From: a virus
Taxonomy: Duplodnaviria; Caudoviricetes
Reading direction: 5' to 3' (one strand)
Length of the DNA: 57,772 bases
IMG/VR virus record: IMGVR_UViG_3300032315_000416
Span: 1 to 57,772 of that record
Positions within the stretch are counted from its first letter, which is position 1; each line of letters opens with the position of its first letter. Made by a program: the position numbers and the translations under genes. Positions 8,850 through 32,641 of this stretch are shown here, one piece after another. A model generated the notes under the pieces. That model did no database searches and was not told where the DNA came from. It was given only the letters and a program-made list of their open reading frames with translations.

Positions 8850-8876
8850 GGTCTTTAAGTAATTTGTCCTACATTA

Positions 8877-8906
8877 ACTAATGCAAAAAAGGGCGTAAAA
8901 ACGCCC
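8877..8906 (-). promoter_or_regulatory. Late promoter-like element 1 (GGGCG-N16-TGCATTAGT)
   Basis: One of 8 exactly spaced copies; upstream of the 4842-8849 gene; contains the hairpin GGGCGT-TTTT-ACGCCC followed by T6. Confidence 0.8.
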
Positions 8907-8909
8907 CTG

Positions 8910-9161
8910 TTATTGGGTTGGACCATTAATAATTTCAGTAAACTCATATGCCCAATCTTGCCAGTTTTCATATAGGGCTGGGTCTGGAACGGGATAACTT
9001 AAAAATGTTGATAACTGAGCCACGTTACTGGCGACTATTTTCCAGTCAATTTCTGGCAACGCTGGAATAGGTTCTTCACCGTAAAACATAACCAGATTAC
9101 CGTTCCAATCTTCCCAGCTCATAAAGTCTGGCACACATGGAAAAAAGGATTGAATAGCCAT
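8910..9161 (-). CDS. Hypothetical tail-region protein (83 aa)
   Basis: Translationally coupled to the upstream tail gene; Trp-rich. Confidence 0.7.
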   Translation of the reverse strand: MAIQSFFPCVPDFMSWEDWNGNLVMFYGEEPIPALPEIDWKIVASNVAQLSTFLSYPVPDPALYENWQDWAYEFTEIINGPTQ

Positions 9162-12579: not shown

Positions 12580-12582
12580 AGA

Positions 12583-13203
12583 TTAGGGCTCTTGAATAGT
12601 AGTATTGCGATCCACACGACGCGAATCGTCTTCTTTTTTCAGTGCGTTTAGTGAGTCAGTGTAGTAGCTCTTCCAGACAGGTAATTTGTCCAGTGCTTTT
12701 AAATATCCCTGAGCTTGCAACAATGTACCAAACAACATGGCCTGTGGACACTCGCGGGTAAATAGGTTTTGTTGGTTTGAAGTATCTAAGGGCTGGATCT
12801 CACTGTAATAAATGATTTCAAGCGGTGTCGCTACGGATGGCTTTGGCGCAAACGCAAAGTTGTTGTAGTCATACTCTGCATAATATTTTGGCGCGCCAGC
12901 ACTAGACTCAGATTCATATTGAGCCACGTAGTCTTGTGAACGTATTAACAGTGGACGACCATTTGCTTTCATGGATACCGTCTTGCGCCAACGGGCTGGC
13001 TTATTCAGCACCACTTGGTTAACTGCCAGTGTTGTCTCTACAACAGTTAGTTGCAGCAGCGTCTTTAGCTCTGCCGCAATAGCTGACTCTGCCAATCCGA
13101 TTAGGCTAGGGATCTGCGCAATAAAACCTGCGTCGTCTCTTTCCATGTAGTTAATGACATCCTGAACCAGGTTGTCATACGTCATTTGATATGCGCCGCT
13201 CAT
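12583..13203 (-). CDS. Head-tail adaptor protein
   Basis: MTYDNLVQDV..Y...IP.LI.LAE and G.PKYY...FAPKP patterns typical of podovirus adaptors. Confidence 0.65.
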   Translation of the reverse strand: MSGAYQMTYDNLVQDVINYMERDDAGFIAQIPSLIGLAESAIAAELKTLLQLTVVETTLAVNQVVLNKPARWRKTVSMKANGRPLLIRSQDYVAQYESESSAGAPKYYAEYDYNNFAFAPKPSVATPLEIIYYSEIQPLDTSNQQNLFTRECPQAMLFGTLLQAQGYLKALDKLPVWKSYYTDSLNALKKEDDSRRVDRNTTIQEP

Positions 13204-14279
13204 CGTGTGTAGTAACTATAGTTAGGTTGGAAATAGATCGGTGACTTGTCACGATCCTCTTCTTCGAACTCTGTACGAGCTTGCAATGCCAGTTTCTCTA
13301 AATACGTTACCCGAGCCAAATCAATGCCAGGTAACTGCATAGCCACCTTATGGGATAGTGCAGCTTGAACGTATGGGATCACACGATCTGGTAAATACAG
13401 TTCGTTAGTTAATGTGCCGACGTCTTGAGGTTGGATGTCTAAGATTAACTGGAATACTTGGTAGTTGTTATTAGGCACTGGCCATAGGTACATCTCGGGG
13501 TCGATCTGCCTGTTAAACCAATACTGCAGCGAACGTTGGCTTTGGAATTGCTTGTTTGGCAAGTTCCAATAGTCTGTACGGTTTAAACGGGATAGGGGAA
13601 TAACCTGTTGGCTTTGTGCAAACTGAATAGCACGAAGGGAGAACGTTGATGTTGTGACGCGATTCTTTAAACGGAAACCATAAAACTCTTGGGTTGCGTT
13701 AATAGTAAAGTAAGCCCACTCACGGTCTGCTAGTGTTTTAGTTGGGAACGAATACCAAGTAGTCCAATTAACGCCATCGTTGGTTACTTCCAAATCTAAG
13801 CTATAGTCTGCTGCACCAGCGGGGGCGTATGCATTAAAGCCGACATAAAAGATGCGTGTACCTTGACTATACGATGCGCCAAAGTAATTGTCCACTAGCG
13901 TGGAGGTTGCGAACAGATCTAAGTCTGCGTTGCTTGTTTGATCAAACAGAGCATAGGCGCTTGCACTAGAAACTGGCAACGCAGAGGTAATGGATGGGTT
14001 TACAATGTACACCCAGTTGGCTTCCAAAACGTCTACGCAGTTTTTTGGCATAGTCAACCATTGCTGATTAGTCTGTGCGCCAAGCACTACGTTTTGTTGG
14101 AGCCAAATATTAATACCGCGGTTAGCGGAGTTTTGCAAAATATAAAACAGAGCTTGCTTACCGGCATCAGCATACTCAGGTGTAATTTCTTCCGAGGTTC
14201 TACCTGCATCACGCATTGCATAAGCGACTAACTGGTCTACCGTTATCTTGGTCTGGTTATAGGTGCCGGAGTAGGCCAT
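13200..14279 (-). CDS. Adaptor/tail tubular protein A-like, with an inserted beta-sandwich domain
   Basis: N-terminal RGINIW motif and C-terminal RLNRTDY.NLPNK...QYWF.R...LWPVP; the central insertion resembles a discoidin-type domain. Confidence 0.6.
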   Translation of the reverse strand: MAYSGTYNQTKITVDQLVAYAMRDAGRTSEEITPEYADAGKQALFYILQNSANRGINIWLQQNVVLGAQTNQQWLTMPKNCVDVLEANWVYIVNPSITSALPVSSASAYALFDQTSNADLDLFATSTLVDNYFGASYSQGTRIFYVGFNAYAPAGAADYSLDLEVTNDGVNWTTWYSFPTKTLADREWAYFTINATQEFYGFRLKNRVTTSTFSLRAIQFAQSQQVIPLSRLNRTDYWNLPNKQFQSQRSLQYWFNRQIDPEMYLWPVPNNNYQVFQLILDIQPQDVGTLTNELYLPDRVIPYVQAALSHKVAMQLPGIDLARVTYLEKLALQARTEFEEEDRDKSPIYFQPNYSYYTR

Positions 14280-17207: not shown

Positions 17208-17441
17208 TTATCTGTCGACTTTTTTATCTAGTTTATCTTCAATACGATGAAGGGCTTTTAGTACTTCATTCCAACGATCATTAAAGTCGTCTTTGTGTAC
17301 ATAGTGGGTTGGCAACTCCTCGCGAAGTTTGGCTAAATCGTCTTTTAGATCTTGGACGGCTGTCCATAGTTCTCTGCAGAACCAACCAAGCACGCCGCAG
17401 ATGATGGGTATTGCAATGTTAAATAGTTCTTGCATGTCCAT
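17208..17441 (-). CDS. Small membrane protein (N-terminal TM helix plus coiled coil)
   Basis: Hydrophobic N-terminus and LPTHYVHKDDF motif; precedes the lysis genes. Confidence 0.65.
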   Translation of the reverse strand: MDMQELFNIAIPIICGVLGWFCRELWTAVQDLKDDLAKLREELPTHYVHKDDFNDRWNEVLKALHRIEDKLDKKVDR

Positions 17442-18799
17442 TATTGAGCCGCTTTCAATGCATCAATTTCGGCTTTGAGTTCTTGAATTGCTTTAACCAA
17501 ATACGCTGTTAAATTAAGATCAAGCGCTTTTATTGTCTCTTGGCCCTGCGGCACAAATTGTTTATATTTTTCTGGAACAATCGTTTCTATAGTATGCCCA
17601 GGAAAAATTGTTTCAAACTCCTGTGCAATAAAACCAGTTTTAGTTTCACCAATTTTATCTTTGTATTCAAAATGAATTGGTTTAAGGGAGTTTATTTTAT
17701 CTAGTGCGCTTGTTATTGAGCGAACATTTGTTTTTATGTTGTTGTCTGATATGGTAGACCAGTTGGGCGAATTGCTAGCTTGGAAATTACCGCCAGTTGA
17801 AAAGTACACAGAACCAAAACTTCCACCTACGTTAAAGTAAAAAATATTACCGCTGCCGGTAGATGAAATTGTGTTAATAGAAGAACCAATACCAACGTTA
17901 TTGGATTGCAGCGCTGAATATCCACCGGCGTTTGTGCAAGTGACAAGTCCAATAGCAGTCACGCCAGTAACAGAAATGCTAGGTGATCCCGTCAGTCCTG
18001 CGGCTGTTGTTGCGCTATTTGCAGTATTTGCGCTATTTGCAGTATTTGCGCTGCTTGCGCTGCCGGCTGATGTTGCAAATGATGCGCTGGCCGCAGTGCC
18101 GCTAATGTTAATACCCCACGTGCCAGATGCGCCAGTGCCGTTTGGTTGTGGCGGTGTGTAACCAAGTGCTGTAGTAACTTGACCAGAGGTTAAACCAGTG
18201 GCGTTGACAATATTAACAGATGTTGGTGTGCCAAGAATTGGAGTCACTAGCGTTGGGGAAACATTGCATACCATTACGCCAGTTCCTGTAGAACCAGTTA
18301 CCGCACCAGCGCCGTTTGCTAAGCCAATGGTTGGTGTGGTTGTGCCAGTTACAGTGACAGGGAATGCTGCGTTGACTGCGGTTACACCGCCACCGCCGCC
18401 ACCTGCGGGGGTAGCCCACACTCCATCGCCACGCCAAAAGGTTGTGGCTGACGCGCTGGTGCCGCTGTTAAGATTACCGACTGGCAGATTGCCCGTGACC
18501 TGCGAGGCTAGGTTAACGTTTGACAGTGTGCCGCCCAGTGTCAGGCTGCCCGTGGATGTTACGGTGCCTGTCAGCGTCAGACCGTTTACTGTGCCAGCCC
18601 CAGATACGCTGGTGACCGTTCCGCCACCCGATCCGGCAGAGGTAAGCAGTTGGACCGCGCCGGCATTGTTTTTGTAGTACAGCTTTCCGTCAACTACGTT
18701 AAGCGCTAGTTCGCCTACCGTTAAGTCCGCAGCAAGCGGAACCGACAGTGCGGTCGTGCTGTGGTAAAGCTGAATGGGTGTGAAGCCGGTCTGAGCCAT
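17441..18799 (-). CDS. Tail fibre with C-terminal intramolecular chaperone (peptidase S74)
   Basis: [14 protein letters not shown]-terminal anchor; C-terminal SD..IK.N...GFIAQE...LVKAIQELK. Confidence 0.85.
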
Positions 18800-19845
18800 T
18801 ATAGTTCCTCGTAAAACTTTAGGTTAGTTTTTAATCGTCCGTCGGTCGGGTTCATCTCTAGCGCCATCCGACCGTACTTAATTGCTTCTTCTTTAAATTT
18901 TAAGTGATAGGCAGCAATGGCTATTACGTCTGGTAGCATGAACCCCCACGCCTGCGGGGCGCCAGTGTGCTGTGCTATGTTTTGTGTTATCTCTATTGCG
19001 TTCTTGCCTGCGCCGTAGCACTCTGCCCAGCGATGCTTTTCGTAGCAAAGCATCGCCAAATCGTACCAGTTTTCTCGTATGCCAGGCTCTTCTGCTACCG
19101 CCTTACGAAACCATGCAATACCTGGTTGCTGCATTTTTTCCAATGACGCGCCAATCATGCGCATCGTGTGGCTTCTCTCTAGCGTCCACGTCGCTGTAGG
19201 AAGCGTTAGGTATCGTTTTAATTCGTCGACAGCCTCTTGCCATCTAAACTTAAACGTCAGCTCCCTGCCGTAATAGTAGCAGCTACGGTGGCAGTTTTGG
19301 TCTTCCTTTACCGCCATTTCCAAGAGCTCTAGGTATAACCCCCTTGGTTTTGTGTCGTCTGGTTTGTGTGTCATCATCACAAAGGACGTATGGCCGCAAG
19401 TGTCTGTTACCCTAGAATCCGGCATGATGTACTCATGACAGGGAAACTTCCAATAGTAACCGTGACGATTGTGCGCTCTGGACGGGTAGAAGACTCGGTT
19501 CTCACCAAAGTCAAACCCAATGTTAAGACGGGTTATGTCTTCGCTCCAGCACTGCTCAATCTCTTTACGCCATCCAGGGAGTAGCATCTCGTCCAAGTCC
19601 ATAGAGACGCAGATATCCACGTCAGCAGGGACGAGCGCTAGGGCCGCGTTACGGGCCACATCAAACCTAAACGGCGTAACATTAATCTGGTGTACCTGCG
19701 CACCACAATCCTTAGCCATTTCAACGGTCTTGTCAGTGGAGCCAGTATCGGCTATTACTATAAGATCTGCATCTTTTGCTGACTCACAGAACCGTTTAAC
19801 ATGTAATTCTTCGTTTTTTGCAATTGCATATACAGCAATTTTCAT
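18799..19845 (-). CDS. GT2 glycosyltransferase with TPR repeats
   Basis: IAKNEE, ADTGSTD.T, FDVARN.AL and MDLDE (DxD) motifs; helical TPR-like C-terminus. Confidence 0.9.
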
Positions 19846-19873
19846 GGATTTCTCCGTAGCTTATCCTGTATAT

Positions 19874-19903
19874 ACTAATGCAAAAAACTAGGGATTTGCG
19901 CCC
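19874..19903 (-). promoter_or_regulatory. Late promoter-like element 3
   Basis: GGGCG-N16-TGCATTAGT directly upstream of the GT2-TPR gene. Confidence 0.8.
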
Positions 19904-20295
19904 TAACTACTCCAAACTGCCTGCGGTTGAGCAGGAAACGTTGCTGGCGTTGTGGGCGGGTTTACTGCAATATTACGCACCGTACTGCGATATGCCAAGA
20001 ACGCATCTTGATTGGTTAAGTATGGATTTGAGTACTGTGGATTGTTAATATCTACAGTGCAGGTCCAATCGGTTTGTTGTAAGAGCGATGTAGCGGTTGA
20101 TTTGTTTTGCGCCTGAATTTCTTCGGGCGTTGGCGCTGGAGGTGCAATCCATTCACCATTAAGCAAAAACCAGTCAAAAGTTACCTCATCCGGTGCTTCA
20201 ATAAACTGAGAAGCATAACCTTCGCTAAAAACTTCGTATGGATCAATTTGCGTCTGATCGGTTACTACATTGTATGTTAAATATACATAGTGCAT
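19903..20295 (-). CDS. Tail fibre assembly chaperone-like protein
   Basis: LLQQTDWT...YR..VR.I...P.QP C-terminal pattern. Confidence 0.65.
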   Translation of the reverse strand: MHYVYLTYNVVTDQTQIDPYEVFSEGYASQFIEAPDEVTFDWFLLNGEWIAPPAPTPEEIQAQNKSTATSLLQQTDWTCTVDINNPQYSNPYLTNQDAFLAYRSTVRNIAVNPPTTPATFPAQPQAVWSS

Positions 20296-20342
20296 TTTGT
20301 GTTAACCTTTTAAATATTATGTTTTATCAAATTTAGAATTTT

Positions 20343-21104
20343 TTATAAACCTATTTGCGTATTTAAATTTTTGCAAACTGATTGTAGATTATCGGGTAAG
20401 TCAATGTCAATTTTTCTTTCTGTAATGTTATTTCTAATGTCGTGCTGCCCATTTAAGCCATAAACAGAATCGTCTTCTTGATGTTGCTGAACAATATTTA
20501 ATAAATTGTGTTCAAAAAAATCTAACTCAAAAAAACTGTAAATCTTTTTTAACGAGTTTTGTGTATCAGAAACTAAATCTTTGTACGATAAAAATAAAAA
20601 CATTTCATTGTTATTTTGATTAACTGTATTAACAACCCCAGAGTAAGACCGCATAATTGGCTCGCTACCATCTTGTAAAAGCGAGTACGCCATAGTTGGA
20701 TTAAACTTTTTATTTTCTGTATACAGATTTATAAACGATTTAACAATTTCCTCTATTGGCCTAACCAAAACAATAATTTTTGGTTTATCTGTAATGTACT
20801 CTTTTATCAACTTAATATTTGGTTCTAATGTCCATGATCTACACTTGTCTAAAACATTGGGTTTTGTAGTGTTTTTGTAATATAAATCTGGAATTGTTTT
20901 TACTATTTCATTGGCAATATCTTGTTTTTTGTTAGCTTGTATTTGCTCTGCCGCATATTCATTAATTGAAACATGGTTGTCCCAAAGCATTTGACATACA
21001 GCAGAATTGCCTTCTGCATGAATTTGTGGGTTTTGGTCTAAAATAGCCGAGAGTAGGGTTGACCCGGCCCTCGGCAATCCGCTTAAAAAAAAGTAATTTT
21101 TCAT
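20343..21104 (-). CDS. Sulfotransferase
   Basis: 5'-PSB motif SGLPRAGSTLL, DK.RSW, and IIVLVRP.EEIVKSF (3'-PB-like). Confidence 0.85.
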   Translation of the reverse strand: MKNYFFLSGLPRAGSTLLSAILDQNPQIHAEGNSAVCQMLWDNHVSINEYAAEQIQANKKQDIANEIVKTIPDLYYKNTTKPNVLDKCRSWTLEPNIKLIKEYITDKPKIIVLVRPIEEIVKSFINLYTENKKFNPTMAYSLLQDGSEPIMRSYSGVVNTVNQNNNEMFLFLSYKDLVSDTQNSLKKIYSFFELDFFEHNLLNIVQQHQEDDSVYGLNGQHDIRNNITERKIDIDLPDNLQSVCKNLNTQIGL

Positions 21105-22274
21105 TTAAGCATAAATATACACTATTGCTCCGCCTCCAGTTGCCGCACCAACGGCGGCAGCACTTCTTTTGCTTCCTCCTCCTGCACCGCCGCCACCTAA
21201 GCCGCCATTTCCTCCGATAGTGCTACCATATCCACCACCACCACCACCGCCACCCCATAAACCGCCATTTCCACCTGTTGCGCTATCTCCTCCTCCGCCG
21301 CCTCCAGCGCCACCAGTTCTGCCGCTTGATGTTGTACCAGAACCACCAGCCCCTCCGCCGCCATCGGCAGCAACTGTTGTTGCCCCTGGTGCGTTTCCAG
21401 CGCCAGTAAGAAATACAAGTAATGGGTCTGTAAATAATGTAAAATATGATCTTGCTATCCCTGGAGTTGAGCCGCTTCCTGCGCCGCCAGCTCCGCCTCC
21501 AGCGCTGCCAGCACTAGCTCCACCAGCCCCTCCGCCGCCGCCTCCAGCGCTAGCATAACCACCACCACCCCCAATTCCTGCTCCCCCACCTGCGTTTCTA
21601 TATCCCCCACCACCTCCTGTAAAACCATTTCCTAATGGACTTGCAGCAGAACCACCACCACCACCAGCAGTAGTACCTCTAGCTCCACCACTTCCACCAG
21701 TAAAATTGCCACCATTGGTAACTGATGCGTCTTTTGTGGCTGTTCCGCCAGTTGGCACAGAGCCAGTTTGAACCCCGTTTGATCCTGGGTTTGCAACTAA
21801 TAAATTTATTCCGCCGTAGGTAACTGTTGCAGTTCCAGAAGATATAGTAATCGTTACATTTTGACCAGGGGTAACAGCAAAATTACCAAATGCGCATCCG
21901 CCGCCACTTGCTCCACTACAACTTACATCGGTTCCAACTACAACTATTGCGTCCCCGCCTTTTCCAAAAGCATAAGCACGGACAGTAGTAACACCCGTTG
22001 GAACGGTGTAAGTTCCAGATGATGTAAATTGTGTCCATATTTTTTGGGTTGTAGTTGCTGCTGGCGGTGCGGCGCTTGTCCAAGTTGTGCCGTTGGATGT
22101 AAGCAAATTACCTGTTGTGCCAGGGGCTACAGCTTGAACAGCAGATGTTCCGTTACCAAGAAGTACGTTATTTGCAGTAAGTGTAGCGGATCCAGTGCCG
22201 CCTTTAGTGACGCCCAATATACCGGTGTTAGAAACGCCGGGGGCTAGTTTGGATAGGTCGCGTGGAATTGTCAT
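21105..22274 (-). CDS. Glycine-rich fibre/adhesin
   Basis: FTSSGTYTVPTGVT followed by polyglycine GGGGG repeats; N-terminal GGTG...LLGNGTS fibre motif. Confidence 0.75.
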   Translation of the reverse strand: MTIPRDLSKLAPGVSNTGILGVTKGGTGSATLTANNVLLGNGTSAVQAVAPGTTGNLLTSNGTTWTSAAPPAATTTQKIWTQFTSSGTYTVPTGVTTVRAYAFGKGGDAIVVVGTDVSCSGASGGGCAFGNFAVTPGQNVTITISSGTATVTYGGINLLVANPGSNGVQTGSVPTGGTATKDASVTNGGNFTGGSGGARGTTAGGGGGSAASPLGNGFTGGGGGYRNAGGGAGIGGGGGYASAGGGGGGAGGASAGSAGGGAGGAGSGSTPGIARSYFTLFTDPLLVFLTGAGNAPGATTVAADGGGGAGGSGTTSSGRTGGAGGGGGGDSATGGNGGLWGGGGGGGGYGSTIGGNGGLGGGGAGGGSKRSAAAVGAATGGGAIVYIYA

Positions 22275-22286
22275 GCTGTTTCCTTA

Positions 22287-23126
22287 TTATTTTTCTAATC
22301 CCAGTTCTTTGCGTATTTTGGTAGCAGAGATAGCGTGGGTTGTGTCGTCAAATGTTTCTTGCTCTATTTTGTAGCCAACATCGCGCCCGTAGGTGATATT
22401 GACAATATTCGGTACTACCTGTATTTCATACTGCCCTTGAAACAGTGGATCTAGGTCACGCTTGATGTAACTCTTCACTTGCTCAATGGCAAATGGGTTT
22501 GATCCCTGCCAACCTTGGCAGTCGCGGATCTGAATCACCACTTGCCCCGTTTTGGCTATAGCACGTTCAAAGAGCGCTCTATGCCCAGCGTGCCAAGGTT
22601 GCCATCTACCTAGCATCTGAACCGTTTCTGTCTGCCAGTTAAACACCGGACGCCTGCGGTTCTCAATAATGTGATTGCCAATAAACTCGGCCCACTTCTC
22701 GCAGTTCTGCTCCGTCACCCGGAAGTCATACACCTCTGGCTGCACGAACGCCTTGTTCGTATCTTCAAAGCGACCAGCATCAATCGTATCCATCCAGATT
22801 GTCCAGTCCGCTTTGAAGTTATTACGCATCTCGACCAAAGGAGCAACAAAGTCGCAAATTACATAATCGCCGCCAGCAGACAGGGCAAACTCAGCCATCC
22901 TTAACGATTGACGGATACGACCTTCTTTAGAGAAGTCCCAATCGTTGTACTTCTTACGCACTTCATCGGCATTGAACCAAGTTACTTGGCAATTCAAATC
23001 GCCCATGTACTGGTTCAAAGCACGACCGTATGACATCTCGCCATGCTCTTCTAGATAGGCTTTTAGGGCCTGTGCTAGGTACGTCTTGCCTGAGCCGGGT
23101 AGGCCCATGATTAGTATCTTTTTCAT
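22287..23126 (-). CDS. APS kinase (CysC-like) fused to an HxGH nucleotidyltransferase domain
   Basis: P-loop GLPGSGKT and NADEVR...FSKEGRIRQ; C-terminal GRWQPWHAGH and ISATKIR. Confidence 0.8.
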   Translation of the reverse strand: MKKILIMGLPGSGKTYLAQALKAYLEEHGEMSYGRALNQYMGDLNCQVTWFNADEVRKKYNDWDFSKEGRIRQSLRMAEFALSAGGDYVICDFVAPLVEMRNNFKADWTIWMDTIDAGRFEDTNKAFVQPEVYDFRVTEQNCEKWAEFIGNHIIENRRRPVFNWQTETVQMLGRWQPWHAGHRALFERAIAKTGQVVIQIRDCQGWQGSNPFAIEQVKSYIKRDLDPLFQGQYEIQVVPNIVNITYGRDVGYKIEQETFDDTTHAISATKIRKELGLEK

Positions 23127-23674
23127 GATTTAATTGCCCTTGCGTAGATGTGGAGTTGATAACATGCGTTATTATACCTGCTCATTTCCCGATCCACAAC
23201 ATCCCTAGGTTGTCCTTGCATACCCCGTTGGAACCAAGGTGATAAATCATAATGCACACCCTCCACCTCAATGTCAATCCCAAGCTGTAAACCTAATGTC
23301 GTTTCCTGACCGTTTTCCTCAATCGTTTGCCGATTTTTCTTCTGGCTAAACATGTTAATACCTACCGGCGTCACCTTGCGCACATGGGTGGGATCATGGT
23401 GAAAGTTCTCATGATTCCAATGTGGCACGGTGATTTTTAGCTCGCCGTTGGGTTTAAGAATTCGGTACAGTTCTTTCCATATTGAAAAGTACGTGTTTAC
23501 ATCCTGACCAAGGTGCTCCAATACATGGAACATAATGATCTCGTCAACAGAACTGTCCTCAAACGGTAGCGGCTTTTCTAAATCCGCAACGATATCAGGG
23601 TTACAGTTTGGGTCATGGTCCACATTGACGTACCCGGGAAATTTATTGTAGCCGCAGCCTAAGTTTAGTTTCAT
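23123..23674 (-). CDS. Class I SAM-dependent methyltransferase
   Basis: LNLGCG, LPFEDSSVDEI..FHVLEH and RILKPNG motifs. Confidence 0.9.
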   Translation of the reverse strand: MKLNLGCGYNKFPGYVNVDHDPNCNPDIVADLEKPLPFEDSSVDEIIMFHVLEHLGQDVNTYFSIWKELYRILKPNGELKITVPHWNHENFHHDPTHVRKVTPVGINMFSQKKNRQTIEENGQETTLGLQLGIDIEVEGVHYDLSPWFQRGMQGQPRDVVDREMSRYNNACYQLHIYARAIKS

Positions 23675-23693
23675 GCAGCCAGTATACTATAAA

Positions 23694-24140
23694 TTAAACG
23701 CCGTTGGCAATCTGGTTGTTATCCAGTTCTTGCTGAATGATGTTTAACTGTTCTTGGGTAGTTGCCACATCAATCTGTGCCTTGATGGTTTCGTAGCGAG
23801 TTTGCGCTGCAGCAACAATCGCTGGATCGTAGTGGTCGGCTGGGTTGCTGTTGGTTTCTAAGGCAACTTGACCTGCTACAACCGCATCAAACTGCTGGGC
23901 TGCTTGGCTGTACTTACCGCCTTTTTGCTCGTCAATTGTGAAGTCAAACAGTGTCCAAGTAATTTCTACTGGGTCTAGATCGCAATGATAGACTGGGCCA
24001 TTAAGTCCTTGCTGATACGGGATCGGCGTTGGCTTGATCTCAACTGCGTTTTTCCAGCCGTTTGTACCGACTGGTGAGGGTGGCGTAGTGTCGATGCACT
24101 GAGCCATTTGGTTGTTTACTACTTGTACGTATAATGCCAT
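23694..24140 (-). CDS. Hypothetical protein (possible fibre chaperone)
   Basis: 148 aa ORF with an AGGAG RBS, in the fibre region. Confidence 0.6.
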   Translation of the reverse strand: MALYVQVVNNQMAQCIDTTPPSPVGTNGWKNAVEIKPTPIPYQQGLNGPVYHCDLDPVEITWTLFDFTIDEQKGGKYSQAAQQFDAVVAGQVALETNSNPADHYDPAIVAAAQTRYETIKAQIDVATTQEQLNIIQQELDNNQIANGV

Positions 24141-24156
24141 TTTAATGCTCCTTTTA

Positions 24157-25308
24157 TTAAGTTGATGCTATTGCTAAAACAGAATTACCTGAAAATCCCT
24201 TTCCAACAGTTATCCATGAGGTCAAAGACCCAACTTGTTTAGGTGACGAATACCTAGTTCTGTTTCCTAAACCTAAATTGCCAAATCCGTTAGTACCCCA
24301 AGACCACAAAGTTCCGTCTGTTTTATTTCCAAAACAGGATCGATAACAAGCAGTTACTTGAATCCAATTGGTCAAAGATCCAACCTGTTTAGGGGAGGAG
24401 TAGTATGTTCTATTTCCAAGACCTAATTGTCCAAAAAGATTTGCTCCCCAAGACCATAAAGTATTATTATTTTTTACAGCACAAGCAAAATCTTCCCCAG
24501 CCATTATTTGCGTCCAATCAGTTAAAGAGCCGACCTGTACGGGAGAAGAATAATTTGTTCTATTTCCTAAACCTAACTCACCAAGAGAATTTTGACCCCA
24601 AGACCATATAGTTCCGTCTGTTTTAATTGCAAATGTAGAAAATTTATTAGAAACTATTTGTGACCAAGTAGTTAAAGCACCCACCTGCTTAGGGGAAGAA
24701 TAATAGGTTCTGTTATTAAGACCTAATTGTCCAACATTATTTTGCCCCCAAGCCCATAAAGTTCCATCGGTTTTTATTGCTTTTGTGTTTCCTCTACCGC
24801 AAGAAACTTGTGACCAACCGGTTAAAGAACCAACTTGTTTGGGGGATGAATAATTTGTAGTGTTTCCAAGACCTAAAGCGCCTTGAGTATTTGTTCCCCA
24901 TCCCCAAAGTGTACCGTCTGTTTTTATAGCCATAGTATGATAAACAGACGAAATATTTAACCAGTTAGTAAGAGATCCTACCTGCTTAGGGGATGAGTAA
25001 TAGGTTAGGTTATTTAAACCTAATTGACCGGAATCATTTTTCCCACATGCCCACAATGTCCCATCGGTTTTTGTAGCAAGAAAAACATCAGTTCCACTGG
25101 TAATATTTTGCCAATTTGCAAATGATCCAACCTGTTTAGGAGATGAATAATAAGTGGTGTTGCCAAGTCCTAATTGACCTTGATTATTTCTGCCCCAGCT
25201 ATATAGGTATCTTAAAGGCACAGGCCAAGTTCCAGCTCCCTTAGCTGCGCTTGCTGCGCTTAGCTTCCAGATGCCGCCGTATTGGGTATATGGGTAGACT
25301 ATTGGCAT
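24157..25308 (-). CDS. RCC1/BLIP-II repeat beta-propeller protein (type B, copy 1)
   Basis: About 7 repeats of KTDGTLWSWG.N..GQLGLGN.T.YSSPKQVGSLTNW; probable start MPIVYP. Confidence 0.9.
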   Translation of the reverse strand: MPIVYPYTQYGGIWKLSAASAAKGAGTWPVPLRYLYSWGRNNQGQLGLGNTTYYSSPKQVGSFANWQNITSGTDVFLATKTDGTLWACGKNDSGQLGLNNLTYYSSPKQVGSLTNWLNISSVYHTMAIKTDGTLWGWGTNTQGALGLGNTTNYSSPKQVGSLTGWSQVSCGRGNTKAIKTDGTLWAWGQNNVGQLGLNNRTYYSSPKQVGALTTWSQIVSNKFSTFAIKTDGTIWSWGQNSLGELGLGNRTNYSSPVQVGSLTDWTQIMAGEDFACAVKNNNTLWSWGANLFGQLGLGNRTYYSSPKQVGSLTNWIQVTACYRSCFGNKTDGTLWSWGTNGFGNLGLGNRTRYSSPKQVGSLTSWITVGKGFSGNSVLAIAST

Positions 25309-25309
25309 A

Positions 25310-26434
25310 TTATAAATTTGTTCCAAAAGAAAAAGTCATACCAGTTCCCACTACAGACCATGGAGCCAGACCACCTACTTGGTTTGGTGAGGAACTGTTG
25401 ATTGTAGAACCAAGACCTAGTTGCCCTTGAGCATTACTTCCCCATGTCCATAAAGTGCTATCGGTTTTAATTGCCACGCAATGATTTGATCCGACAGCAA
25501 TATTTGACCAGTTAGTTAAAGCGCCAATTTGTACTGGAGATGATCTGTTTGTTGTGTCTCCTAAACCTAATTGACCTTGATTGTTTTGCCCCCAAGCCCA
25601 TAAAGTTCCGTCTGTTTTTATTGCCGCAGTAAAATAAAAACCACCTGCTGCCCTTAGCCAATTTGTTAAAACTCCGACTTGTTTTGGGGAAGAATACCTA
25701 GTTGTATTTCCCAATCCTAATTTACCTGCAGTATTGTCACCCCACACCCACAAAGACCCATCTGTTTTAACAGCTAAACAATTTTGATACCCAGCGCTAA
25801 TAGCCAACCAATTTGTCAACGAACCAACTTGTTTAGGGGAGGAATAGCTAGTTGTATTTCCTAGACCTAAATTACCATAAAAATTATAACCACAAGCATA
25901 TAATTGACCTGTGGTTGTAATTGCCGCCATGAATGTTGAATTAACAGCAACAGTTGACCAATTATTTAGTAAACCAACCTGTACTGGTGAAGATCTGTCT
26001 GTAGTATCTCCAAGACCCAATTGACCGTTAAAATTTCCACCCCAAGTCCATAAGGTTCCGTCTGTTCTAATAGCTGCACAAAAACCACCTCTTGAAGCAA
26101 CAGATGACCAAGTTGTCAAAGACCCAACCTGCTTAGGTGATGAATAGGATGTGTTATTACCAAGCCCTAGTACTCCAGAGCTACCAGACCCCCAACACCA
26201 AAGAGTACCATCTGTTTTAATTGCAGCAGTATTGTAATACCCTCCAGCAATTTTTAACCAATTAGTTAAAGAACCAACTTGCGCTGGGGATGATTTTCCT
26301 ACACGGTCATTTAAACCTAGTTGACCTTGAGTATTAGCCCCCCAACCGTATAAATAGTAAGTATTAGTGCCAGTGGGTGCAACCAAGGTGTTTAGCCCTG
26401 GTTTAATCATGGCGTTGGCATACCGATAGCTCAT
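25310..26434 (-). CDS. RCC1/BLIP-II repeat beta-propeller protein (type A, copy 1)
   Basis: Same repeats; N-terminus MSYRY. Confidence 0.9.
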   Translation of the reverse strand: MSYRYANAMIKPGLNTLVAPTGTNTYYLYGWGANTQGQLGLNDRVGKSSPAQVGSLTNWLKIAGGYYNTAAIKTDGTLWCWGSGSSGVLGLGNNTSYSSPKQVGSLTTWSSVASRGGFCAAIRTDGTLWTWGGNFNGQLGLGDTTDRSSPVQVGLLNNWSTVAVNSTFMAAITTTGQLYACGYNFYGNLGLGNTTSYSSPKQVGSLTNWLAISAGYQNCLAVKTDGSLWVWGDNTAGKLGLGNTTRYSSPKQVGVLTNWLRAAGGFYFTAAIKTDGTLWAWGQNNQGQLGLGDTTNRSSPVQIGALTNWSNIAVGSNHCVAIKTDSTLWTWGSNAQGQLGLGSTINSSSPNQVGGLAPWSVVGTGMTFSFGTNL

Positions 26435-28206
26435 TAACTTACCATTCTTATTTGTGGCTGTTCAGCGTGGAGTTTCATTTTAATTCTCTCAAATGGGGCT
26501 ATCCAGTCGCCAAATGTTTCTTGGCGGAACAGCGTCATGCAATCATAATACGGGCATTTTTCACCATCCAGAGCATACAAGTAGTAACCCATAACAGGGA
26601 TAACTACCCAAGTCTCAACGCCCATTGCCGCCGCTAAATGACTGACGGAGGTACACGAACTGATAACTAAATCACAGCTTGCTGCCGCATTTTGCGTATC
26701 TTGCCAGCTATCTAATGGTACTCGTTTTACCCAAGGCGGGCAAGCATCTGCACCCTCATCACGCTGCAATGAGATGAACTCATAGTCCGCACCTTGCACT
26801 GCATCAAACAGCATCTGATACGGAAACTTCTTATTATGGTCATCTTCAAACTTACTGTTACCTTGCCAACGTAAACCAATGCGTTTTTTACGTCCTTTGA
26901 TGACATTTGGCTTAGGGATGTATGGAGTGCCAGATAGGTCTGACATCTCGTATCCAAGGTAGTTTGGGGCCACCATCGCAAACGCCCAGAAGTCGTGGTA
27001 AATGCCGTACTCAGCGCCGTGCTGGATAACCGCAGAGACACCTTCAACTTGCGAGAAGAGCTGTGCCAATGGGCCAGAACAGCAAACAATCACCTTGTTA
27101 CCACGCGCAACTAAGTCTTTAGCGTAACGCACCTGGTGGATCTGATCGCCTAATCCGTGGTCACAATATAGCAAGATAGTGCCTTTAGAACGTCCGTCCC
27201 ACTCTGGCATCGGGGTATCAGGGTGGCGCTCACCAATAATCCCGCAGAATCGACCACGATCCATTTCTTTGTAACCTTCACGAACTTTACCCTGTTTGAG
27301 TAAGTACCATGAGCGGTTGTACGCAGCACGGTGATCGGTTGGGCGCTCTTTGTTTAACTTCTCGGCTAATCTCCAGCCTTCTACAAAGTCGCCCATCTTA
27401 CCTGCGGCTAACTGTAAATCCAAGTCATCCAAGTTAGGGATGGTGCGCTTGTTGTCGTTCCAGAACTCAGGCTGGCAGAACTGGTTATAGTGGTGCTTTA
27501 ATAAGTCATGCGAGTCATCGTTGTGCTGTTTCTTTAATTCTGGTTTGATGTCGTGCATACCAGCATAGCCATGTAAATTCTCGTCGTCTTCTTTGACTGA
27601 GCTGCCGTCAATGTTAGACAGATCGTACTCAAACGGGGCCAGACCTAAGAACTCGTGAATGCGGTCAAGTTCGGTTTTTGGGTTGGCTAATAGGTTATCG
27701 TACTCCACAAACAAGAAGCACTCTGGCATGGCTTCATAGCCTTGCTGCAATGAAATATAGGCTGCCTTTAAATGGTCGGCAAGCTGACCAGAATACATAA
27801 ACTCATCTAAATTCTCAGGCTTGGCAACCCGTACAAAGGAAGCCATACAGTCTGGCACTGGGCGCACGGTAGCAATAATCTTAGGAGCATGTCCGAGTAC
27901 CTGAGTCATAGCACCCATAATGATCGGAATGGGCCAACCACGCCCTTTATCAATCACCACTGGCTTATCGGTATCTTCATAGAACGCATCAATCATGCCG
28001 CGCATGGTCTGCGCTAGTTTCTTACGGTCTGGATCGTTCTCATTCAAAAGACCAGCAGAGTGCCAGGTGTTAGCCAAGCCATCTAAAGCGTGAACTAAAC
28101 CAGATGTTGTAGAGACATGCGTCTCTGGGTTCTGATTAAGGATTGCCGCTAAGACTGTAGAGCCAGAGCGAGGAATACCTGATAAGAAATGCAATGTTTT
28201 TTTCAA
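26434..28206 (-). CDS. Sulfotransferase + TPR + GT-B (GT9-like) glycosyltransferase fusion
   Basis: SGIPRSGSTVL at the N-terminus; DHGLGDQI and CDLVIS.CTSVSHLAAAMG at the C-terminus. Confidence 0.85.
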   Translation of the reverse strand: MKKTLHFLSGIPRSGSTVLAAILNQNPETHVSTTSGLVHALDGLANTWHSAGLLNENDPDRKKLAQTMRGMIDAFYEDTDKPVVIDKGRGWPIPIIMGAMTQVLGHAPKIIATVRPVPDCMASFVRVAKPENLDEFMYSGQLADHLKAAYISLQQGYEAMPECFLFVEYDNLLANPKTELDRIHEFLGLAPFEYDLSNIDGSSVKEDDENLHGYAGMHDIKPELKKQHNDDSHDLLKHHYNQFCQPEFWNDNKRTIPNLDDLDLQLAAGKMGDFVEGWRLAEKLNKERPTDHRAAYNRSWYLLKQGKVREGYKEMDRGRFCGIIGERHPDTPMPEWDGRSKGTILLYCDHGLGDQIHQVRYAKDLVARGNKVIVCCSGPLAQLFSQVEGVSAVIQHGAEYGIYHDFWAFAMVAPNYLGYEMSDLSGTPYIPKPNVIKGRKKRIGLRWQGNSKFEDDHNKKFPYQMLFDAVQGADYEFISLQRDEGADACPPWVKRVPLDSWQDTQNAAASCDLVISSCTSVSHLAAAMGVETWVVIPVMGYYLYALDGEKCPYYDCMTLFRQETFGDWIAPFERIKMKLHAEQPQIRMVS

Positions 28207-28219
28207 AACGTTATGTCCT

Positions 28220-29395
28220 TTATGGTGTTATTTTTGCTATGCCTATAGCAGAATCTCTATTTCCTGCAATATTATCCCAAGTTGTTAGCGAACCAACTTG
28301 CACAGGGGAACTGTAGTTTGTTGTATTTCCTAAACCAATCTGTCCATTCGCTCCAGATCCCCAGCCCCATAAAGTGCCGTCAGTTTTGATGGCAAATAAA
28401 CCACTTAAACGAACAGCAATTTTAGACCAATTGGTTAAACTGCCGACTTGTTTGGGGGATGAATAAGACGTTGTGTTTCCAAGACCTAATTGTCCAGAGG
28501 TATTAGCTCCCCATGTCCAGATTGTTCCATCGGATTTAAGTGCAAATGAAAAACTTCCGTGTGCTGCAACATTAGCCCAATTAGTTAGTGACCCCACTTG
28601 TTTGGGGGATGAATAGTTGGTTATATTTCCAAGGCCTAATTGACCGGCTTGATTTCTTCCCCAAGACCATAGTGTGCCGTCTGTTTTTACAGAAATTGTA
28701 TGAAAGCCGCCATTAGCAACTTTGCTCCAGTTTGTAAGAGAACCGATTTGCACAGGTGAATTTACATCAGTAGATCCACCATTACCAATACCCCCAAAAA
28801 GATTTCTGCCCCAAGCCCACAAAGATCCGTCTGTTTTTATTGTGGAGCAGGAATCTAAAACGCAAGAAATATACGCCCAATTTGTTAACGAACCAACTTG
28901 TTTAGGAGAGGAATAAGATGTTGTATTACCAAGACCTAATTGACTATCACTTCCACCACCCCATGTCCAAATAGTGCCGTCTGTTTTAAGTGATAGGCAA
29001 CTAATGCCTCCGCACTGTATTTTTGACCAATTTGTAAGAGAGCCAACTTGTTTTGGTGATGAGTAGTTAGTTAAGTTTCCAAGACCAAGTTGTCCATAAC
29101 TTACATTATTTTGACCCCAGGTCCATAATGTGCCGTCTGTTTTAATAGCGCCAGAAAAATATGAATACCCAGCGGAAACTTCAAGCCAAGTTGTTAAATT
29201 ACCAATTTGTGTTGGTGACGACTTTGATACAGTTGTGCTATCACCAATGCGGCCGTCAGTACCGATTCCCCAAGTGTATAAATAAGGCACAGGAGGGGGT
29301 GGTGGCACAGGCCACTTATTCTGCGCCCGAGCATCAGCAGCTTGGTCTGTTGTCCAGATGCCGCCGTATCTAATGTAGGGAAAAGTTATTGGCAT
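28220..29395 (-). CDS. RCC1/BLIP-II repeat beta-propeller protein (type B, copy 2)
   Basis: RCC1 repeats; probable start MPITFP. Confidence 0.9.
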   Translation of the reverse strand: MPITFPYIRYGGIWTTDQAADARAQNKWPVPPPPPVPYLYTWGIGTDGRIGDSTTVSKSSPTQIGNLTTWLEVSAGYSYFSGAIKTDGTLWTWGQNNVSYGQLGLGNLTNYSSPKQVGSLTNWSKIQCGGISCLSLKTDGTIWTWGGGSDSQLGLGNTTSYSSPKQVGSLTNWAYISCVLDSCSTIKTDGSLWAWGRNLFGGIGNGGSTDVNSPVQIGSLTNWSKVANGGFHTISVKTDGTLWSWGRNQAGQLGLGNITNYSSPKQVGSLTNWANVAAHGSFSFALKSDGTIWTWGANTSGQLGLGNTTSYSSPKQVGSLTNWSKIAVRLSGLFAIKTDGTLWGWGSGANGQIGLGNTTNYSSPVQVGSLTTWDNIAGNRDSAIGIAKITP

Positions 29396-29396
29396 A

Positions 29397-30545
29397 TTAT
29401 AAGGATAGTGCCATTGACACATATCCGCCGTTTATTTTATCTGGTAGCGCACCCCAGGTGGTTAATGCACCAACTTGTTTTGGAGAGGAGATTCCGGTGT
29501 ATGAGCCAACATTGTCCAAATAGCCTAGTTCACCGAACCTATTTCTACCCCAAGACCAGAGAGTACCATCGGTTTTTGTTGCATAACCATAATAGCCTCC
29601 GCCGGCAACATCTAACCAATTTGTAAGCGCACCAATCTGATTTGGAGAAGATCTGTTAGTAGTGTTTCCGAGACCTAGTTGCCCATAATTATTATATCCC
29701 CAAGACCATAGTGTGCCATCTGTTTTAATAGCAAATACAACTCTTACAGCATTACCTTTTGCTTTTGACCAGTTGGTTAAAGATCCTACTTGTTTTGGTG
29801 ATGAATAATATGTTGTGTTACCTAAGCCTAATTCGCCAAAGCCATTTTGCCCCCAACCCCACAGTGTGCCGTCAGTTTTAACTGCAATAGCAGAGTTTTG
29901 ACTGCCATTTATGTTTGCCCAATTAGTTAGAACTCCAACTTGTTTTGGTGATGAGTATTCTGTTCTGTTGCCTAAGCCTAATTGACCATCACCATTTCGC
30001 CCCCAAGACCATAGAGTACCGTTAGTTTTAACTGCAAAACTACTGTAACCCCCGCAACCAACTTGTAACCAATCTGTTAGTGAACCAACTTGTTTTGGTG
30101 AAGAATAATATGTTAAATTGTTAAGTCCTAGTTGACCGCTATTGTTATTTCCCCATGTCCAAAGTGTGCCGTCAGTTTTTGTTGCAACAGTATGATACCT
30201 AATTGCTATGTTCAACCAATTAGTTAAGGATCCGACTTGTTTTGGGGATGAGTAGTTTGTTCTGTTGCCTAAACCTAATTGCCCACGATTATTAGAACCC
30301 CAAGTCCATAAAGTTCCGTCACTTTTAATAGCTGCACACTGTGTGTCCCCAGTTGAAATTTTTGCCCAATTTGTCAACGATCCAACCTGTTTGGGGGAAG
30401 AATAATTAGTCCTATTTCCTAAACCCAATTGACCACTTGAATTTAATCCCCAAGAATACAAATAATATTGAAAAATGGGTGAGGGGGCGTTAAGCGGATC
30501 AAATGCTCCGTTTTGTAGCCAAGCTCCTGTGTAACGCAGGGACAT
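29397..30545 (-). CDS. RCC1/BLIP-II repeat beta-propeller protein (type A, copy 2)
   Basis: RCC1 repeats; probable start MSLRY. Confidence 0.9.
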   Translation of the reverse strand: MSLRYTGAWLQNGAFDPLNAPSPIFQYYLYSWGLNSSGQLGLGNRTNYSSPKQVGSLTNWAKISTGDTQCAAIKSDGTLWTWGSNNRGQLGLGNRTNYSSPKQVGSLTNWLNIAIRYHTVATKTDGTLWTWGNNNSGQLGLNNLTYYSSPKQVGSLTDWLQVGCGGYSSFAVKTNGTLWSWGRNGDGQLGLGNRTEYSSPKQVGVLTNWANINGSQNSAIAVKTDGTLWGWGQNGFGELGLGNTTYYSSPKQVGSLTNWSKAKGNAVRVVFAIKTDGTLWSWGYNNYGQLGLGNTTNRSSPNQIGALTNWLDVAGGGYYGYATKTDGTLWSWGRNRFGELGYLDNVGSYTGISSPKQVGALTTWGALPDKINGGYVSMALSL

Positions 30546-30546
30546 C

Positions 30547-30951
30547 TTAGGTGATCGCTTCAAATATTGCTGTATAGGTCAAGGCGTTTGCTGTGCCTGA
30601 CTGTACCGCAAGTGATTGGTTCTCCGTGATGTAGAGGTCTGTAGTCTTATCAACTACGATCAAAGATGCATTGGCTGGTACTGAAATCTGATACGCCAGG
30701 TACGAGATTATGGTAGCCGAGCCAAAGGTTGCATTGTTACCAACCGCTACGGTTGCTGCGGCGGCAGAAGCTGTCGTATTAGACACGATCAAGCCAGTAA
30801 TCTTATGTACCGTGTTAGCGGCTGGGTTAAGACCAGCATCTGCGGTAGTACCGTCAAATGTCCAGCTAGTCGTTACGCCTGTAGTAGACGGAACAACATA
30901 CGCTGTCTGTCCTCTAATTGTGGTTAGTGCTGCAATATTTGGGTTTGCCAT
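30547..30951 (-). CDS. Small beta-rich structural protein (fibre-associated)
   Basis: MANPNI...ISVPANASL....YI.E pattern; directly follows the collagen fibre gene. Confidence 0.7.
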   Translation of the reverse strand: MANPNIAALTTIRGQTAYVVPSTTGVTTSWTFDGTTADAGLNPAANTVHKITGLIVSNTTASAAAATVAVGNNATFGSATIISYLAYQISVPANASLIVVDKTTDLYITENQSLAVQSGTANALTYTAIFEAIT

Positions 30952-30952
30952 T

Positions 30953-32641
<1,689 letters not shown>

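Follow-up and report, generated by a model that had tools for sequence, protein, structure and literature searches.

We characterized a gene of the viral record IMGVR_UViG_3300032315_000416 from IMG/VR (Duplodnaviria; Caudoviricetes), a stretch of 57,772 nucleotides (57.8 kb, estimated to be 89% complete) that is referred to as the window below. The gene is located on the minus strand (22287..23126, stop codon at 22287–22289) and encodes a 279-aa protein, P0001, in which an N-terminal kinase domain is fused to a C-terminal minimal HxGH nucleotidyltransferase (mini-NT). The reading that we favor, at a probability of roughly 0.55, is that P0001 is a compact bifunctional synthase of 3′-phosphoadenosine 5′-phosphosulfate (PAPS), the universal sulfate donor; the domain identities, conservation, architectures and co-occurrence were observed, and both substrates and the sulfation target are predicted. 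The open reading frame (ORF) runs from ATG to stop and was assigned to PHROG 10255 'kinase' (3e-47), and the plus strand of the same interval was full of stops, with no open frame. The fusion, the P-loop and the two strings quoted in a sequence-only reading of this DNA were found to be real: GLPGSGKT is located at aa 8–15, GRWQPWHAGH at aa 173–182 and ISATKIR at aa 266–272 of P0001.

In the mechanism that we propose, the C-terminal domain of 113 residues, derived from a nicotinamide mononucleotide adenylyltransferase (NMNAT), would adenylylate sulfate (ATP + sulfate to adenosine 5′-phosphosulfate, APS, + pyrophosphate). The N-terminal half, identified as a lid-less APS kinase by homology and fold, would then phosphorylate the 3′-OH of APS, its predicted substrate, to yield PAPS, which would be supplied to both phage sulfotransferases encoded in the same minus-strand run. 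Fusion of the two halves, or their coupled translation, would allow the removal of APS to pull the unfavorable sulfurylase step forward. To our knowledge, only two kinds of sulfate-activating enzyme exist, Sat and CysDN, and under the favored reading the mini-NT would be an ATP sulfurylase of a type not described before. A wider claim, which we put forward tentatively and hold with less than even confidence, is that it represents a third class alongside these two and, together with the lid-less kinase, the smallest PAPS synthase known, spread by phages that sulfate surface structures of their own or of their hosts; in SAR11 and SAR86, without Sat and CysD, it would be the source of PAPS for their sulfotransferases and also the missing enzyme for the interconversion of sulfate and the APS that core AprBA handles.

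The N-Terminal APS Kinase-Like Half

The N-terminal half (aa 1–155; 22662..23126, minus strand) is APS-kinase-like by Pfam, profile and fold, in agreement with the sequence-only reading. The best Pfam family was PF01583 (APS_kinase), which matched aa 34–105 at model positions 19–93 of 152 with 35.4 bits (cut-off 21.1); in the genome search of the window record the score was 28.5 bits. The family profile matched APS kinases in PDB (E 4.6e-15 and weaker). An AlphaFold2 model of the whole protein, based on a 44-sequence alignment, had a mean predicted local distance difference test (pLDDT) score of 92.1 and a predicted template modeling score of 0.78, and every one of its Foldseek ranks 1–30 was taken by an APS kinase or a PAPS synthase (E 1.5e-6 to 3.6e-5), with gluconate and shikimate kinases lower.

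Conservation was assessed among 44 full-length homologues with 35–55% identity. In the Walker A P-loop GLPGSGKT (23082..23105, minus), G8, G13 and K14 were invariant. The segment FNADEVR...DFSKEGR (aa 51–70; 22917..22976, minus) aligned with LDGDNLR...GFSPEDR of canonical APS kinase, both by BLASTP against P0217, a homologue carrying such a kinase (see below), and by HMMER against APS kinases in PDB. R57 was invariant, and D54, F65, R70 and Q73 were present in at least 90% of the homologues. Compared to P0217 and the PDB APS kinases, D54, R57, F65, R70 and FVAP were retained, with the first Asp replaced by Asn52 and the Asn replaced by Gln73. In real APS kinases, this Asp-x-Asp/Arg/Phe/Arg/Asn block and the FISP strand presumably make the contacts to APS and Mg. 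A further stretch runs from DFVAP (aa 92–96) to GRFEDTNKAFVQP (aa 118–130; together 22737..22853, minus). DFVAP was matched to SFISP by alignment, and the remainder, including a missing lid of about 20 residues, was compared by eye; D122, T123, F127 and P130 were kept in at least 90% of the homologues. An insert of about 19 residues after the first kinase helix (aa 28–46; window 22989–23045) was lineage-specific and absent from most homologues, and no other part was modeled with low confidence (pLDDT about 60 in the insert).

The C-Terminal Minimal Nucleotidyltransferase Half

The mini-NT comprises aa 167–279 (113 aa; 22290..22628, minus) and is supported by the domain model, by VIA-align and by its identity to P0217. 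Its HxGH ATP-binding motif GRWQPWHAGH (22581..22610, minus) aligned with the motif of NadM 2qjt, and G173, R174, Q176, H179 and H182 were invariant. In the family-specific block YGRDVGY (aa 246–252; 22371..22391, minus), G247, R248 and G251 were invariant and Y246, V250 and Y252 were found in at least 90% of the homologues; the Asp of this block is Gly in SAR11 copies. The ISxTxxR motif, ISATKIR (22311..22331, minus), had an invariant R272, with S267 in at least 90%. All 44 full-length homologues share the P-loop, HxGH, GR..G and the terminal Arg without exception, and the invariance of HxGH, ISxTxxR and the extra Arg and Gly in such diverse proteins points to catalysis. AlphaFold2 modeled the domain alone with a mean pLDDT of 93.5 (56-sequence alignment). 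The Pfam model CTP_transf_like reached 17.9 bits at aa 173–201, below its cut-off of 21.

The mini-NT lies within the HxGH superfamily that contains Sat, yet it is not a member of the Sat family. In alignments to 2qjt and 1f9a, it was shown to contain the ATP-binding motifs GRxQPxHxGH and SxTxxR of archaeal/NadM NMNATs. A profile of the nucleotidyltransferase domain aligned to NMNAT at positions 8–68 only, which is the ATP-binding part. Compared to NMNAT, the mini-NT has about 24 residues fewer in its middle segment and no C-terminal helices, and just 7 residues follow ISATKIR; the part outside the NMNAT alignment carries a family-specific block, PNIxNIxYGR(D/G)VGY. The NMNAT segment without a counterpart in the mini-NT is, we assume, the NMN-binding side. 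The domain had previously been called independently evolved, which is better read as recruitment from an NMNAT-like branch of the superfamily shared with Sat.

Family Size and Domain Architectures

The two-domain protein was found in 1988 cluster representatives at E ≤ 1e-3 and in 102 at E ≤ 1e-30, a recurrence well beyond chance, and the family comprises at least 8000 candidates passing E ≤ 0.001 (8000 of 8000 scored). Several architectures were detected. P0217 joins the mini-NT to a complete APS kinase of the canonical type (PF01583, 211.9 bits), and the C-terminal domain of P0001 showed 45% identity to the nucleotidyltransferase domain of this protein (E 4e-36); the P0217 cluster has 7 members from five sources (JGI, ENA, NCBI, Logan and Tara). 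P0193 has the reverse order, with the nucleotidyltransferase preceding the kinase, and stand-alone halves were found as well. The compact kinase was also found with other partners, namely a PF00483 sugar-phosphate-type nucleotidyltransferase in P0270 (389 aa; 11-member cluster) and an SGNH/GDSL-like domain in P0183 and P0261 (a weak match, E 0.0017). With partners exchanged in this way, the kinase may act in several donor pathways. P0196, a kinase with a C-terminal half containing an RSGST-like string, was considered as a kinase-sulfotransferase fusion and was rejected, since neither Pfam at E ≤ 5 nor a BLASTP comparison with the window sulfotransferase yielded a match.

Of 308 confirmed loci in cellular genomes, the best 80 were analyzed. 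The halves were split and adjacent or overlapping in 34 of 48 SAR11 loci, fused in 11 and split apart in two, and one locus contained one half only. The other 32 loci (SAR86, Bradyrhizobium, Inquilinus, Rhodospirillales and others) were fused in 30 cases, with one split adjacent pair, none split apart and one locus with one half only.

Linkage to Sulfotransferases in Viruses

Two sulfotransferases, both presumed users of PAPS, neighbor the fusion gene in the window, as the sequence-only reading had noted. A 253-aa sulfotransferase is encoded two genes downstream (20343..21104, minus; Sulfotransfer_3 62.6 bits, Sulfotransfer_1 49.8 bits), and a 590-aa protein that begins with a sulfotransferase domain is encoded upstream (26434..28206, minus; Sulfotransfer_3 56.1 bits, Sulfotransfer_1 29.9 bits). 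In the 590-aa protein the match is confined to the first approximately 190 residues, and the C-terminal part of about 360 residues had no Pfam match at E ≤ 0.001; open frames for a two-part sulfotransferase protein of this kind (about 570–620 aa) recur across many related viral records.

This linkage was examined in two sets of 80 viral loci, of which set 1 was 78–96% identical to P0001 and set 2 was found with P0217 as query. Fifty records per set, mostly the longer loci, were searched along with a control of 50 random viral records picked by an arbitrary 14-mer. PF13469 (Sulfotransfer_3) was present in 39/50 records of set 1 and 19/50 of set 2 compared to 0/50 random records (Fisher p 8e-18 and 5e-7, respectively). 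In addition, PF03567 was present in 8 of 42 PF13469-negative records, and this family was the commonest neighbor cluster in loci that had been scored as sulfotransferase-negative (15 loci). Counted jointly, PF13469 and PF03567 were found in 40/50 and 26/50 records of sets 1 and 2. A phmmer search of the fetched flanks with the window sulfotransferases gave a match in 52/80 loci of set 1 and 25/77 of set 2. All 77 sulfotransferases found in this way were on the same strand as the fusion gene and 76 were within 5 kb, at median distances of 1.2 kb (set 1) and 0.5 kb (set 2). Purpose-built hidden Markov models (HMMs) detected a sulfotransferase in the flanks of 52/80 and 43/77 loci.

In a Sano-like cultured phage, an unannotated gene two upstream of the fusion homologue matched Sulfotransfer_4 (PF17784, 26.2 bits; cut-off 22.8). 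A 'hypothetical protein' of Stenotrophomonas phage Bhz60 (positions 4972–5547 of locus L001) and its equivalent in a second locus (L002) matched Sulfotransfer_4 above the cut-off. The run of sulfotransferase, NADAR and kinase-nucleotidyltransferase genes in phages of the Sano/Salvo type adjoins a MazG-like pyrophosphatase gene. Homologues of the window sulfotransferase were found in 9 of 50,697 cultured records (cyanophages and marine viruses), and these did not overlap with the 15 records containing fusion homologues. Adjacency to cysQ was also considered and was not supported in the five genomes inspected: the nearest Inositol_P-family gene lay at a distance of about 5 kb in G162 and much farther off in the other four.

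Cellular Genomes

Sulfotransferases were also found near cellular homologues. A sulfotransferase with tetratricopeptide repeats (TPR) was located within about 4 kb in 6 of the 32 non-SAR11 loci, and on a Bradyrhizobium chromosome two sulfotransferases lie directly upstream of the homologue on the same strand.

Four Pelagibacter genomes of 1.3–1.5 Mb, two of them complete by title, were used for a missing-enzyme test. Sat (PF01747) was found in 0/4 and CysD above the cut-off in 0/4, and all four contained the compact kinase and PF13469 (1–8 matches each). CoaD, CoaE, NadD and AprA were each found in 4/4, and the presence of the first three implies that the kinase and mini-NT pair is dispensable for the synthesis of coenzyme A (CoA) or nicotinamide adenine dinucleotide (NAD). 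In all five genomes tested, CoaD (171–176 bits) and CoaE (66–138 bits) were detected and canonical NadD likewise coexisted with the pair; the CoaD model TIGR01510 matched canonical CoaD and, weakly, NadD in these five genomes and never the mini-NT locus.

Of 81 Pelagibacteraceae genomes in a larger sample, 4 contained Sat, 37 contained the mini-NT and 28 contained PF13469. Mini-NT and sulfotransferase were positively associated (table 20/17/8/36, odds ratio 5.3, Fisher p 0.001), in a test that ignores relatedness of the genomes. According to the excerpted text of one report, strong purifying selection acts on aprAB, which is core in Pelagibacteraceae, and the pathways for sulfate reduction in this family are 'incomplete' (PMC12636525).

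The location of the SAR11 pair was conserved in L331, L310 and about 30 other loci (around positions 8600–13300), in a setting of betaine and one-carbon genes (GCV_T/DAO, homocysteine S-methyltransferase, OpuAC and ETF). Two Pelagibacter genomes (L366 and L367) contained APS-kinase homologues (111–118 bits) in a polysaccharide cluster together with a PPDK_N/PEP-utilizing enzyme, Peptidase_C26/GATase and NTP_transferase. This gene set corresponds to that of the Campylobacter O-methyl-phosphoramidate pathway, and therefore SAR11 may phosphoramidate surface glycans. This 'canonical APS kinase' of two Pelagibacter genomes was considered as a fusion of the P0217 type and was rejected, as it lies in this phosphoramidate-pathway-like cluster.

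Alternative Readings and Points Against a PAPS Synthase

A number of observations speak against a PAPS synthase, and they concern the kinase half, the viral linkage, the nucleotidyltransferase half and the cellular genomes. A literature search found no description of such an enzyme, and cysQ, cysH, Sat and CysD were not found in the window. As for the kinase, NCBIfam cut-offs for APS kinases were missed (TIGR00455, 28.1 vs 138.7 bits; PRK05541, 31.7 vs 127 bits), and a comparison by eye showed that a mobile lid of the KGLYKKARAG type, as present in P0217, occurs neither in P0001 nor in the 44-sequence consensus. Campylobacter Cj1415 is, we assume, an APS-kinase homologue. The excerpted text of a study of Cj1415–1418 describes these enzymes as making cytidine diphosphate-phosphoramidate 3′-phosphate (PMC11800397), a case of an APS-kinase homologue with another substrate. 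Membership of the APS kinase family is thus no proof of APS as substrate, because homologues of the Cj1415 type act on other nucleotides.

This precedent is part of what recommends a different activated donor, a reading that we consider unlikely. The nucleotidyltransferase would join a nucleotide to a phospho-compound, and the kinase would either phosphorylate the product at the 3′ position, as Cj1416 and Cj1415 do for cytidine diphosphoramidate, or phosphorylate a sugar or polyol beforehand, as in HldE/TagD, and the product would serve the glycan-tailoring enzymes encoded in the operon. The same gene set, including the APS-kinase homologue, was found in SAR11 capsule-like clusters, P0270 joins the compact kinase to a PF00483 nucleotidyltransferase, the window operon includes a glycosyltransferase and a methyltransferase, and the cytidylyltransferases Fom1, TagD and CCT reached VIA-align Z 7.5–8.0 with the mini-NT. 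However, the recurring partners are PAPS-type sulfotransferases of three families, and neither a glutamine kinase nor a hydrolase of the phosphoramidate pathway was found in the window. A canonical APS kinase of 212 bits also occurs as a fusion partner of the mini-NT, and the compact kinase retains residues that align with the APS-contacting block.

With regard to the viral linkage, 34 of the 100 records searched had no above-cut-off match to PF13469, PF03567 or PF00685. A PF17784 search of these 34 records gave no match, and it is uninformative because its control gave no match anywhere. Among the sulfotransferase-negative records are the jumbo genomes G034, G077 and G086 (344, 363 and 197 kb), all three 100% complete, and the fusion copy of G034 is 82% identical to the window protein. 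The purpose-built HMMs added four ORFs overall, two per HMM, and none of these was a divergent sulfotransferase in a jumbo-phage locus; Pfam searches of the neighbors were uninformative. With no recognizable sulfotransferase in these three genomes, the product of the fusion may serve host enzymes or another purpose there.

The acceptor of the mini-NT is not named by its predicted fold. By sequence profile, the closest PDB entries were archaeal/NadM NMNATs (1f9a, 4e-12; 2qjt, 3e-11). In a wide VIA-align search, phosphopantetheine adenylyltransferase (PPAT) reached Z 10.1, NMNAT 9.9, NadM 9.8 and 9.5, and NadR 9.0 and 8.5. The best Sat entry, Thermus 1v47, had Z 8.4 (root-mean-square deviation 3.2, 113 residues aligned) and other Sat entries 5.2–6.0, so that PPAT, NMNAT, NadM and NadR (Z 10.1–9.0) outrank Sat by fold. 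No Foldseek match of the isolated domain reached E ≤ 0.001; PPAT came closest (3.5e-3), and the PPAT and NMNAT matches were weak throughout. PF01747 gave no match at E ≤ 1, and the Sat catalytic domain was absent from the PDB profile matches. Moreover, hhalign against four Sat sequences from Pelagibacteraceae genomes (334–356 aa) aligned 16 columns around ISxTxxR, with a probability of 2.6%. The suggestion that the domain is nearer to NMNAT than to Sat was thus borne out by profiles, by hhalign and by the comparison of the predicted structure with both enzymes. The N-terminal PUA-like domain of Sat and its length of about 350–400 aa have no parallel in the 113-aa mini-NT. The order of Sat motifs, ..RN.PH..H, GRDHAG and ISGTKIR (the last in two of the four sequences), parallels HAGH, GRDVGY and ISATKIR, of which only the last was aligned by a tool. 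A correspondence of the GRD loop with Sat was dropped, since hhalign aligned the ISxTxxR region alone.

These matches bring two other readings into play. One is NAD salvage in the manner of NadR with reversed domain order, in which a nicotinamide riboside kinase and an NMN adenylyltransferase would rebuild NAD+ during infection, for example against a NAD-depleting defense; we regard this as improbable. It would agree with NMNATs as the best C-terminal sequence matches, with NadM and NadR near the top by fold, with the overlap between the fusion homologue and a NADAR-domain gene in cultured phages of the Sano/Salvo type, and with jumbo phages that carry the fusion without sulfotransferases. However, the kinase is APS-kinase-like, and the sole match of the nicotinamide riboside kinase type, AAA_28, was below threshold (E 0.0056), with none among the Foldseek matches listed. 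The NMNAT alignment is restricted to the ATP-binding half, the shortened middle and the absent C-terminal helices lying outside it, and NCBIfam NMNAT models scored 22–25 bits against cut-offs of 127–181 (TIGR01527, 22.3 vs 181.2 bits; PRK01153, 25.5 vs 127 bits). SAR11 and Bradyrhizobium have NadD, and the Sano-like phage has its sulfotransferase-family gene two upstream of the homologue.

The other is a compact analogue of CoA synthase, with the mini-NT as PPAT and the kinase as dephospho-CoA 3′-kinase, which appears very improbable. PPAT is the top fold match of the mini-NT (Z 10.1; Foldseek rank 1), the chemistry would be parallel, with adenylyl transfer followed by 3′-phosphorylation, and the SAR11 pair adjoins genes for an enoyl-CoA hydratase and a CoA-binding protein. 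Against this stand the canonical CoaD and CoaE in five of five genomes and the CoaD model that misses the mini-NT locus, and the linkage to sulfotransferases and the fusion with a canonical APS kinase would be left unaccounted for.

The cellular genomes contain exceptions to a PAPS synthase reading and also other potential sources of APS. The main SAR11 split pair is preceded by a Rieske ring-hydroxylating oxygenase subunit and followed by the enoyl-CoA hydratase and a CoA_binding_2 protein, and sulfotransferases are not adjacent. Seventeen SAR11 genomes with the mini-NT had no PF13469 match, and the mini-NT was also present in three of the four Sat-positive genomes. Eight of the 28 sulfotransferase-positive SAR11 genomes had neither mini-NT nor Sat. 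In SAR11, sulfite could be turned into APS by AprA as part of AprBA, and three CysD/CysNC sets are present in Bradyrhizobium. Such observations are compatible with a true APS kinase whose partner is not a sulfurylase, APS being provided by Sat, CysDN or, from sulfite, AprBA of the host and the mini-NT serving nucleotide sensing or regulation, or some other adenylyl transfer within this pathway. We assign this reading a low probability. AprA in 4/4 Pelagibacter genomes and the Bradyrhizobium sets are potential sources of APS that need no mini-NT, the eight genomes do without mini-NT or Sat, and sequence similarity to Sat is limited to ISxTxxR. Against this reading stand the invariance of the HxGH, ISxTxxR, Arg and Gly positions, which points to catalysis, and a mini-NT that stays with an APS-type kinase through both fusion orders, fission and fusion to a canonical kinase. 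Besides sulfate activation, PAPS metabolism is not known to us to employ the mini-NT fold at any step.

Taken together, we favor the compact PAPS synthase. The earlier proposal of a miniature sulfurylase feeding the neighboring sulfotransferases is upheld in part: it is supported by linkage to three sulfotransferase families against 0/50 in the control, by the fusion to a canonical APS kinase and by Pelagibacter genomes without Sat and CysD, and it is weakened by a fold that names no acceptor and by the exceptions described above.

Gene Neighborhood in the Window

The fusion gene is part of an operon-like run. The stop codon of the upstream gene, which encodes a 183-aa S-adenosylmethionine-dependent methyltransferase (23123..23674, minus; Methyltransf_11 37.6 bits), overlaps the start of the fusion gene (ATGA), and the next gene starts 12 nt downstream. 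The downstream order is a glycine-rich 389-aa protein, the 253-aa sulfotransferase, a 348-aa family-2 glycosyltransferase with a TPR tail (GT2-TPR; 18799..19845, minus; Glycos_transf_2 30.8 bits) and a fiber protein with an S74 chaperone domain. Four RCC1-propeller proteins, the 590-aa sulfotransferase-domain protein and a collagen-like protein are encoded upstream. A fiber-type module thus spans 17441–32641 on the minus strand, in which RCC1, collagen-like, glycine-rich and S74 fiber genes are interleaved with the two sulfotransferases, GT2-TPR and the methyltransferase. Because this run contains glycosyltransferase, methyltransferase, RCC1-propeller, collagen-like and fiber genes, it is probably a surface or fiber decoration module, whose targets may be surface proteins of the phage itself or the envelope of the host.

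Other window genes encode DNA polymerase A, a primase-helicase, a T4-type terminase, a capsid protein, an SU10-type adaptor, a lysozyme and a holin. A 192-aa protein encoded in the early/replication arm (50117–50692, plus strand) showed a weak match to sigma-70 region 2 (25.0 bits, cut-off 24) and may be a phage sigma factor. A megablast search of window positions 18000–30000 against cultured phages gave no match.

Significance

In the excerpted text of a 2023 paper, the role of phage sulfotransferases 'remains unclear' (PMC10580990). If the PAPS synthase reading is true, phages could sulfate independently of the sulfate-assimilation state of the host. A sulfurylase of 113 residues from an NMNAT-like ancestor would then found an enzyme class of its own and offer a very small means of producing PAPS in vitro. 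Besides, the retention of aprAB next to 'incomplete' sulfate reduction in SAR11 would become a testable point; 77 of the 81 sampled genomes were without Sat and 37 contained the mini-NT.

Comparison with Known Systems

Animal PAPSS1/2 (1x6v) share with P0001 the proposed two-step chemistry, the kinase-first order and homologous kinase halves, and 1x6v was the top Foldseek match of the whole P0001 model (E 1.5e-6). As already stated in the sequence-only reading, the window protein has about half the size of these enzymes (279 vs about 620 aa) and the same domain order. It differs in its lid-less kinase and in having no PUA-like domain; furthermore, the sulfurylase of animal PAPSS belongs to the Sat family, whereas the mini-NT had no PF01747 match and reached Z 5.8 to the sulfurylase part of 1x6v. 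Fusions of Sat and APS kinase in Aquifex (2gks), Penicillium (1m8p) and Thiobacillus (3cr8) are similar in joining a sulfurylase (a proposed one in the mini-NT proteins) and a kinase in one chain, and P0217 and P0193 share their nucleotidyltransferase-first order. Their Sat-type domains of about 350–400 aa differ from the 113-aa mini-NT, with Z 5.3–6.0.

Archaeal/NadM NMNATs (1f9a, 1ej2 and 2qjt) showed a near-identical GRxQPxHxGH, an NPF segment, ISxTxxR and Z 9.5–9.9 compared to the mini-NT, which in turn has the shorter middle, the PNIxNIxYGR(D/G)VGY block and no C-terminal helices, and which is partnered by an APS-type kinase and sulfotransferases. The nearest non-sulfate analogy is Campylobacter Cj1416/Cj1415, where, in the excerpted text of the study cited above, a nucleotidyltransferase and an APS-kinase homologue act in series to produce a 3′-phosphorylated nucleoside diphospho-X donor (PMC11800397). 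Cj1416 differs from the mini-NT in its PF00483/PF12804 fold, in its use of CTP and phosphoglutamine and in its need for a glutamine kinase and a hydrolase, and none of these was found in the window. Finally, NadR and CoA synthase resemble P0001 as two-domain proteins with an HxGH transferase and a P-loop kinase, but their kinases belong to families unlike the APS-kinase type of the window protein.

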